Program-made: the position numbers and the translations under genes | Shown here: one piece after another, positions 25,701 through 26,476 of the stretch | Numbering within the stretch: position 1 is the stretch's first letter | Layout: each line of letters opens with the position of its first letter | Assembly: GCA_964574215.1 (NCBI GenBank) | Contig: CAZNLR010000025.1 | Location: forward strand, 1,818-65,817 | Direction: 5' to 3' | From: an uncultured Rhodospirillaceae bacterium | GTDB taxonomy: Bacteria; Pseudomonadota; Alphaproteobacteria; Rhodospirillales; UBA2165 | Length of the DNA: 64,000 bases | Notes under the pieces: generated by a model | Database searches by the model: none | Told to the model about the DNA's origin: nothing | The model's input: the letters and a program-made list of their open reading frames with translations, nothing else

Positions 25701-26267
25701 TATGCCAATATTTTGGAGCGGCTGAAAATTAAATCTTTTACCGATGTGGAAGCAGCCGGCGAGACCCAACCGGTCAAACTGGCTGGTATGGTGATCTCCA
25801 AAAAGGAACGGACATCGGCCAAAGGCAATAAATATGCCTTCGTTCAGTTGTCGGATTCGTCGGGCGCCTATGAGATTACGATTTTTCAAGAACTCCTGAC
25901 GGCGACGCGGGAAATCTTGGAAGCCGGCAACAAGGTGCTGATCAACGCCTCGGTGCAATTCGGCGATCAGGGGTTGAAGCTGTTGGCCAATCAAATCCGG
26001 TCGTTAGACGCGGTTACCGAAGATAGCAATGCCAATCTGAAAATTTATCTCGATGATCCGAGCCCTTTGGCGTCGGTCAAGGAGGTGTTGGAGCGCGAAA
26101 ACGGTGGCAATGGTAACGGCAACGGACGGGGCGAAGTTTTGCTGGTTTCCCGATTAGATATGAATACGGAAGTTGAAATAAAGTTGCCGGGCAAGTTCAA
26201 GGTATCTCCGCTATTAGCGCAGGCGATAAAAGCGGTACCCGGCGTTATCGAAGTGCGTGAAATTTAA
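22758..26267 (+). CDS. dnaE: DNA polymerase III alpha subunit
   Basis: [18 protein letters not shown] domain, [25 protein letters not shown]; no intein evident. Confidence 0.97.
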
Positions 26268-26476
26268 CTTTGCTGTTCGCCAGACCTGGCTTCTTGAATT
26301 GACGGTCAGGGGTCCGAGCCGAAAGAACAGAATACACAGCAATCTCCGGTCAACGGCTTCAACAAATCTCCGCATCCTTCACATTCGTAGAAATGAATGC
26401 AGGCGTCGGTCGGCATTTTTTCCTCTTTTGCATGACCGCAATTTGGACAGGTCAGCGTCGACAGTATATTTACCAT
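26264..26476 (-). CDS. GDCCVxC domain (seleno)protein, 70 aa, in-frame TGA (probable Sec) at codon 57
   Basis: Manual translation MVNILSTLTCPNCGHAKEEKMPTDACIHFYECEGCGDLLKPLTGDCCVFCSFGSDP(TGA)[22 protein letters not shown]; not in ORF track. Confidence 0.85.
26276..26308 (-). promoter_or_regulatory. Candidate bacterial SECIS element
   Basis: mRNA UGA-CCGUCAAUUCAAGAA-GCCA-GGUC-UGGC-GAA: hairpin begins 15 nt after the UGA, apical AGGUCU. Confidence 0.7.

Follow-up and report, generated by a model that had tools for sequence, protein, structure and literature searches.

In an uncultured Rhodospirillaceae bacterium, a small gene on the minus strand between dnaE and rpsB probably encodes a selenocysteine (Sec)-containing member of the NF041374/GOS_B protein family. 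The gene lies at positions 26476–26264 of the window, which here means the whole stretch of 64,000 nucleotides that was analyzed, and it is interrupted by a single in-frame TGA at codon 57. We infer Sec insertion at this codon from the sequence. Decoding of the UGA as Sec would rely on the SelA, SelB, SelD, and tRNA-Sec that the organism itself encodes, perhaps aided by a short hairpin whose GGUC loop begins 19 nt downstream, and the Sec would take the place of an otherwise invariant Cys of the family.

Structure and Surroundings of the Gene

The reading frame of the small gene starts with an ATG (26476–26474), runs through 56 sense codons to the TGA (26308–26306), continues for 13 more sense codons, and closes with a TAA (26266–26264). 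When the TGA is read as U, the product has 70 residues, and retranslation reproduced, letter for letter, the read-through sequence proposed in an earlier note on this DNA. The features of the gene are the following:

26482–26487, minus strand: Shine-Dalgarno sequence GGGAGG, 5 nt before the ATG, read directly from the sequence
26264–26476, minus strand: coding sequence (TAA included) of a 70-residue GDCCVxC-family protein with UGA as codon 57, from translation, NF041374, and alignment with 31 homologues
26306–26308, minus strand: in-frame UGA, proposed selenocysteine codon 57, paired with a Cys invariant in 31/31 homologues
26279–26290, minus strand: minimal SECIS-like hairpin GCCA-GGUC-UGGC with a 4-bp stem and a 4-nt loop, from folding
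26545–26573, minus strand: candidate sigma-70-like promoter, TTGATA-17 nt-TAAAAT, with 10/12 consensus matches, about 70 nt upstream of the ATG

The earlier note had placed a hidden minus-strand gene with a GGGAGG ribosome-binding site in the gap between dnaE and rpsB, and the coordinates, the ribosome-binding site, and both flanks were confirmed. One flank is dnaE (22758–26267, plus strand; 1500 bits to NF004226) and the other is rpsB (TIGR01011, 319.7 bits). The description of the gene as hidden holds for the plain ORF list, which contains only a 56-codon piece (26306..26476), but not for the family, which is already a catalogued selenoprotein family. For the promoter candidate, a scan of the region gave two sites where shuffled sequences would give 0.9, which argues weakly for TTGATA-17-TAAAAT.

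The surroundings of the gene have some features of their own. At 26264–26267, the convergent dnaE and small gene have the letters TTAA in common; their stop codons overlap by 2 nt, and the overlap of the genes is 4 nt. Rfam places an rpsB leader RNA (RF01815; 46.5 bits vs a gathering score of 40) at 26653–26760 on the plus strand, immediately before rpsB and in the same intergenic region as the promoter side of the small gene. A perfect 10-nt palindrome, TGCAATTGCA, seen by eye only, is located at 26602–26611, with the -35 hexamer of the promoter candidate about 30 nt downstream of it.

Family Membership and Conservation Across the UGA

The read-through product belongs to NCBIfam family NF041374 ("GDCCVxC domain-containing (seleno)protein"; curated cut-off 40 bits), which it matches with 103.6 bits (E 4.9e-30) over residues 6–62 and profile positions 1–57 of 58. 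This match runs across the TGA, and with such a score the frame is not a chance ORF. A six-frame search of the genome with the same profile recovered the small gene at 98.1 bits with one TGA inside, and Pfam returned no family for the 70-residue product. In a database search, 1817 proteins among 1818 candidates were found at E ≤ 0.001, and several of them carry the NCBI name "GDCCVxC domain-containing (seleno)protein". The sole match at 100% was the window's own protein call, truncated at 56 residues; the best non-self matches were 64–74% identical to the window's protein.

The earlier note had asked whether codon 57 pairs with Cys in GDCCVxC homologues and whether conservation continues past it, and the alignment answers both points in the affirmative. 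Column 57, that of the TGA, is Cys in 31/31 aligned homologues. After the TGA, P58 and Q61 are invariant in the same 31 sequences, and the window's tail, PSIQEAR, matches the consensus PPIQEAR at six of seven positions. The GDCCVFC motif occupies residues 44–50 of the window's protein; C10, C13, C26, C32, C46, and C47 are, like column 57, invariant across the homologues, and conservation of C35 and C50 is 90% or higher. An in-frame UGA that pairs with a homologue Cys, with conservation on both sides, is a pattern expected of bacterial selenoprotein genes with SelB-dependent UGA recoding, and it is the pattern found here. The gene is otherwise intact, with its ribosome-binding site, its start codon, and all other invariant residues in place.

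The family was described in 2008 as GOS_B, a selenoprotein family from ocean metagenomes with 11 Sec and 125 Cys sequences (Zhang and Gladyshev; PMC2398784). A 2026 review maps "hypothetical protein GOS_B" to NF041374, and its table entry for GOS_B/NF041374 gives no motif (PMC13188914). The earlier note's statement that some GDCCVxC members are annotated as selenoproteins is therefore borne out by the NCBIfam name and by what these two papers list (PMC2398784, PMC13188914). The term GDCCVxC itself had no occurrence in the literature searched. The sequencing runs with DNA of the window bear the labels marine or seawater metagenome, and given this origin and the catalogued status of NF041374/GOS_B, the small gene most likely adds one more member to a marine selenoprotein family that is already on record. 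It shares with that family the domain, the GDCCVFC motif, the Cys pattern, the size class, and the marine habitat, and its TGA falls at the conserved Cys column, as in the other TGA-bearing members found in our scans. From these scans, the Sec position would be the same as in the published GOS_B members. The window's copy differs in two ways: it has no C-terminal CC pair, which is present in most of the aligned homologues, and it does not adjoin merF or merR.

Selenocysteine Machinery of the Genome

The earlier note predicted that the host should carry the Sec machinery, and the window's genome (4.5 Mb, 94% complete) contains all of it. The tRNA-Sec (selC) scores 81 bits and is called by ARAGORN as tRNA-SeC with anticodon tca; SelA scores 556.9 bits, SelB, encoded directly downstream of selA, 469.2 bits, and SelD 409.9 bits. 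The selD gene (G000:C60:4422-5348, locus L018), which lies outside the window, has one in-frame TGA at a GGG-U-GCK site, and SelD is therefore, as read from its gene, itself a selenoprotein. Since a selD with its own Sec codon is present beside selA, selB, and tRNA-Sec, the organism, to judge from these genes, already depends on UGA recoding. Among 27 PF00384 molybdopterin-domain matches in the genome, sought as Sec-type formate dehydrogenase, none had an in-frame stop. The best PF00384 match (351.8 bits) is located within the window at 3864–4820 (G000:C25:5681-6637).

The presence of Sec machinery in a genome does not imply a Sec form of the GDCCVxC protein. In a class sample, 75 GDCCVxC matches were found in 67 of 401 genomes, and 14 of the 66 carriers of Cys forms have SelA yet use Cys. 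The tallies given here take in one unpublished genome with a Cys form (G298), on which no claim rests.

The Hairpin Downstream of the UGA

The only local structure after the UGA is the GCCA-GGUC-UGGC hairpin, with an apical loop that begins with GGU, an energy of -5.1 kcal/mol, and a pair probability of 0.36–0.45. The bSECIS model given in the review describes a loop of 3–9 nt, a stem of at least 4 bp, and a G in the first two loop positions, at 16–37 nt from the UGA and with an MFE ≤ -7.5 kcal/mol (PMC13188914). The window's hairpin agrees with three of four constraints of this model, with its GGUC loop, 4-bp stem, and 19-nt spacing, and departs from it in energy (-5.1 vs ≤ -7.5). The test discriminates little here: as implemented, the model passes 5/10 Sec forms and 33/50 Cys forms of the family. 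The differences between Sec and Cys forms were not significant, either in the energy of the best hairpin (p = 0.09) or in MFE (p = 0.94), and GU was present in the best loop of 5/10 Sec forms vs 4/21 Cys forms. Folding of the 63 nt that follow the UGA gave no advantage over shuffled sequences (z +0.95, with 172 of 200 shuffles at least as good), and in an Rfam scan of 25500–27200 at E ≤ 10 the rpsB leader and three matches at chance level came up, but no SECIS family. Because these tests fail to separate Sec from Cys forms, the hairpin is treated as compatible with a SECIS role and is not counted as evidence.

The selD gene of the same genome offers a comparison. There, too, a UGA at a Cys/Sec site precedes a short GC-rich hairpin whose apical loop contains G-U-C, and the loop starts 17 nt after the UGA, vs 19 nt in the window. 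The selD hairpin (AGCACC-GUC-GGUGCU) is stronger, with 6 bp and about -9.4 kcal/mol in a local fold, whereas that of the window has 4 bp and -5.1 kcal/mol.

UGA at Codon 57 in Other Genomes and Alternative Readings

The alternative that survives best is that the TGA is a nonsense allele, the outcome of a recent TGY-to-TGA change, either in a decaying pseudogene or in a gene that now makes a truncated 56-residue protein, with a tail left over from a Cys ancestor. The truncated protein would lose the last invariant Cys and the tail. We consider this reading rather unlikely, and the other copies of the family bear on it in both directions. Single-step TGY-to-TGA changes do occur in the family where Sec machinery is lacking. 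For instance, the second family copy in G216 (L097 1833–2003, G216:C160) is interrupted by one TGA, which replaces the second Cys of GDCC (Cys47), and retains Cys at column 57, and since neither SelA nor SelB was found in G216, this TGA is probably a nonsense allele. Pseudogenes with several stops also occur and lend the same reading some weight: the copy in G011, from the search of relatives, contains a TAG and a TAA, and that in G396, from the class sample, contains two TGA and one TAA.

Of the 61 genomes in the search of relatives, 24 contained the family, with 25 matches above the cut-off in all, and only the window's copy had a lone TGA. In the one genome of the same genus (78% complete), no GDCCVxC copy was found. 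With the nearest matches at only 64–74% identity and a same-genus genome without a copy, persistence of the window's TGA is not demonstrable, and the fact that no close relative shows it persisting favors a nonsense allele, as do the weak hairpin and a SECIS model that does not separate Sec from Cys forms.

Against a nonsense allele stands the recurrence of the same codon in other lineages. A motif scan of reference genomes and metagenome contigs for TGA at codon 57 found it in five other reference genomes, whose record titles name Rickettsiales, Sedimenticolaceae, Alphaproteobacteria, Gammaproteobacteria, and Bacteroidota MAGs, and in 11 metagenome contigs. The TGA is followed by P-[PS]-x-Q in all of these carriers except L059 and L063, both of which are degraded. 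Three of the 11 contigs are duplicates or near-duplicates of reference genomes, and four look degraded (L056 has a second stop; L059, L062, and L063 have lost the N-terminal frame). After removal of duplicates and degraded copies, nine distinct intact TGA genes are left besides that of the window. Two of the carriers, L061 and L065, form a diverged pair with the TGA in both (78.6% nucleotide identity; pS 0.54, pN 0.115, ratio 0.21), which suggests that, at least in that clade, the TGA form is a maintained gene under purifying selection. This too speaks against a nonsense allele, as do the otherwise intact state of the window's gene, with a tail that agrees with the consensus at all positions but one, the full Sec system and Sec-dependent selD of its genome, and the publication of the family as a selenoprotein family (PMC2398784, PMC13188914).

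The genomes that carry the TGA were also searched for Sec machinery. SelA was found at more than 520 bits in three of the five reference genomes with TGA at codon 57, vs 55 of the 401 genomes of the class sample, an enrichment that is modest and rests on tiny numbers. SelA was not found in G460 (a chromosome-level record; locus L052) or in G463 (locus L055). SelB, searched in four of the five carriers (all but G461), is present in G459 and G462 and was not found in G460 or G463. The best tRNA-Sec candidates in G460 and G463 reached 46.2 and 34.4 bits, scores that miss the 47-bit threshold and that ordinary long-arm tRNAs also attain. L052 and L055, with their conserved tails, could be fossil, transferred, or nonsense alleles, and a TGA at codon 57 in two genomes where neither SelA nor SelB was found is a further point for reading the window's TGA as nonsense. 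The window's protein is 58–69% identical to intact Sec forms vs 55–70% to Cys forms; as it is no closer to the one than to the other, its TGA cannot be argued from shared descent.

It is very unlikely that a TGC or TGT was turned into TGA by faulty sequencing or assembly and that the gene in fact encodes an ordinary Cys form. The low run depth (about 2.8) and the origin of the window from a metagenome-assembled genome would allow for such an error. However, a 213-nt contig from run X3 covers 26219–26431 with 0 differences, TGA included. The contig is only partly independent, as a likely source sample belongs to the same study, and run X6 has identical pieces that may be the same data filed twice; it nevertheless makes an assembly artefact of the TGA unlikely. 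Runs X4 and X9 have no coverage of the gene and carry no weight on this point. The earlier note had named TGC or TGT in reads as a sign of error, and the contig of this other run has the identical TGA instead.

Read-through of the UGA outside the Sec system, by near-cognate insertion of Trp or Cys to give a full-length protein without selenium, is highly improbable: two genomes without Sec machinery do have TGA at codon 57 and intact conserved tails, but fossil or transferred Sec alleles explain them more simply, the window's genome has a dedicated Sec system, and no result here supports such a mechanism.

The reading of the TGA as selenocysteine, as the earlier note proposed, thus appears likely: the alignment, the Sec machinery, and the identical contig support it, and the SECIS evidence is weak.

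Linkage to Mercury Genes and a Possible Role in Soft-Metal Binding

The neighbors of GDCCVxC genes in other genomes point to metal handling. In a first scan of 35 loci (107 ORFs of 90 aa or more), the neighbor family found most often was that of MerR-type regulators (5/107 ORFs). In a second set of 28 class-level loci (97 ORFs of at least 60 aa), MerF was the commonest (6/97), followed by MerR-type regulators (3/97). A merF gene is located directly upstream of the GDCCVxC gene on the same strand in L068, L077, L082, and L094, a gene for an HMA-domain protein is directly upstream in L090, and MerR-type regulators adjoin the gene in L031 and L039. Sec forms show the same arrangement: MerF is directly upstream in three of the eight Sec-form loci scanned (L051, L061, and L065), with matches barely above the cut-off in L061 and L065, and merF is also upstream in L060, a near-duplicate of L051. 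Because MerF had no match in 14 control genomes, its linkage to the family greatly exceeds chance, although only a minority of loci show it. Among the matches of a literature search linking selenoprotein or selenocysteine to MerF, nothing was relevant.

The window's genome itself, at 94% completeness, has no MerF match and no MerA above the cut-off (the best MerA-like match has 363 bits vs 454). The small gene is not part of a mer operon; it stands alone between dnaE and rpsB with its own promoter-like site.

The Cys residues of the protein may fall into two sites. C10, C13, C32, and C35 look like a zinc ribbon, and the CPxCG...YxCxxCG spacing of the N-terminal half resembles that of zinc ribbons of the TFIIS/RPB9 C-terminal type (PDB 1qyp) and of rubredoxin knuckles. 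The match to 1qyp is marginal (E 0.0039, profile positions 7–41) and covers the first four Cys only; the GDCCVxC half differs in that it has no solved relative by sequence. An atlas search with a natural Cys homologue returned only the GDCCVxC family and chance-level clusters of zinc ribbons or rubredoxins. The remaining thiols and the selenol (C26, C46, C47, C50, and U57) would together bind a soft metal, e.g., Hg(II), at a second site; this second site is proposed because homologues elsewhere are often found directly behind merF or beside MerR-type regulators. The role we infer for the protein is thus soft-metal binding, with a zinc ribbon and a second Cys/Sec site.

A more specific proposal, which we offer as tentative, is that GDCCVxC/GOS_B proteins could accept or buffer, in the cytoplasm, soft metals that MerF-type importers bring in, with the Sec forms as higher-affinity Hg-Se traps. 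The metal site would then be formed by the Cys or Sec of column 57 together with the GDCC pair. Like the small proteins of mer operons that partner with MerF or MerT, the window's protein is Cys-rich and has a vicinal CC, and its homologues occur behind merF or beside MerR-type or HMA genes. Metal-handling selenoproteins, among them a "putative mercuric transport protein", are included in the review's list (PMC13188914). Conversely, the window's protein has no sequence similarity to MerF, MerT, or MerP, and its genome shows no MerF or MerA.

Implications

The annotation of this genome needs correcting: what is listed as a 56-codon fragment is really a gene for a probable selenoprotein of 70 residues, in an organism that uses Sec and has a Sec-dependent selD. 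The gain for the field is small, since both the family and its Sec forms had been catalogued before. The TGA alleles in genomes where Sec machinery was not found bear on the gain, transfer, and loss of selenoprotein genes. The only new functional lead is the merF/MerR linkage, which suggests mercury-type handling and gives a testable function to an orphan selenoprotein family that has been unexplained since 2008. If the family does act as acceptors for MerF-type importers, the stand-alone Sec copy in the window would be a constitutive scavenger of mercury or other soft metals in a marine bacterium.
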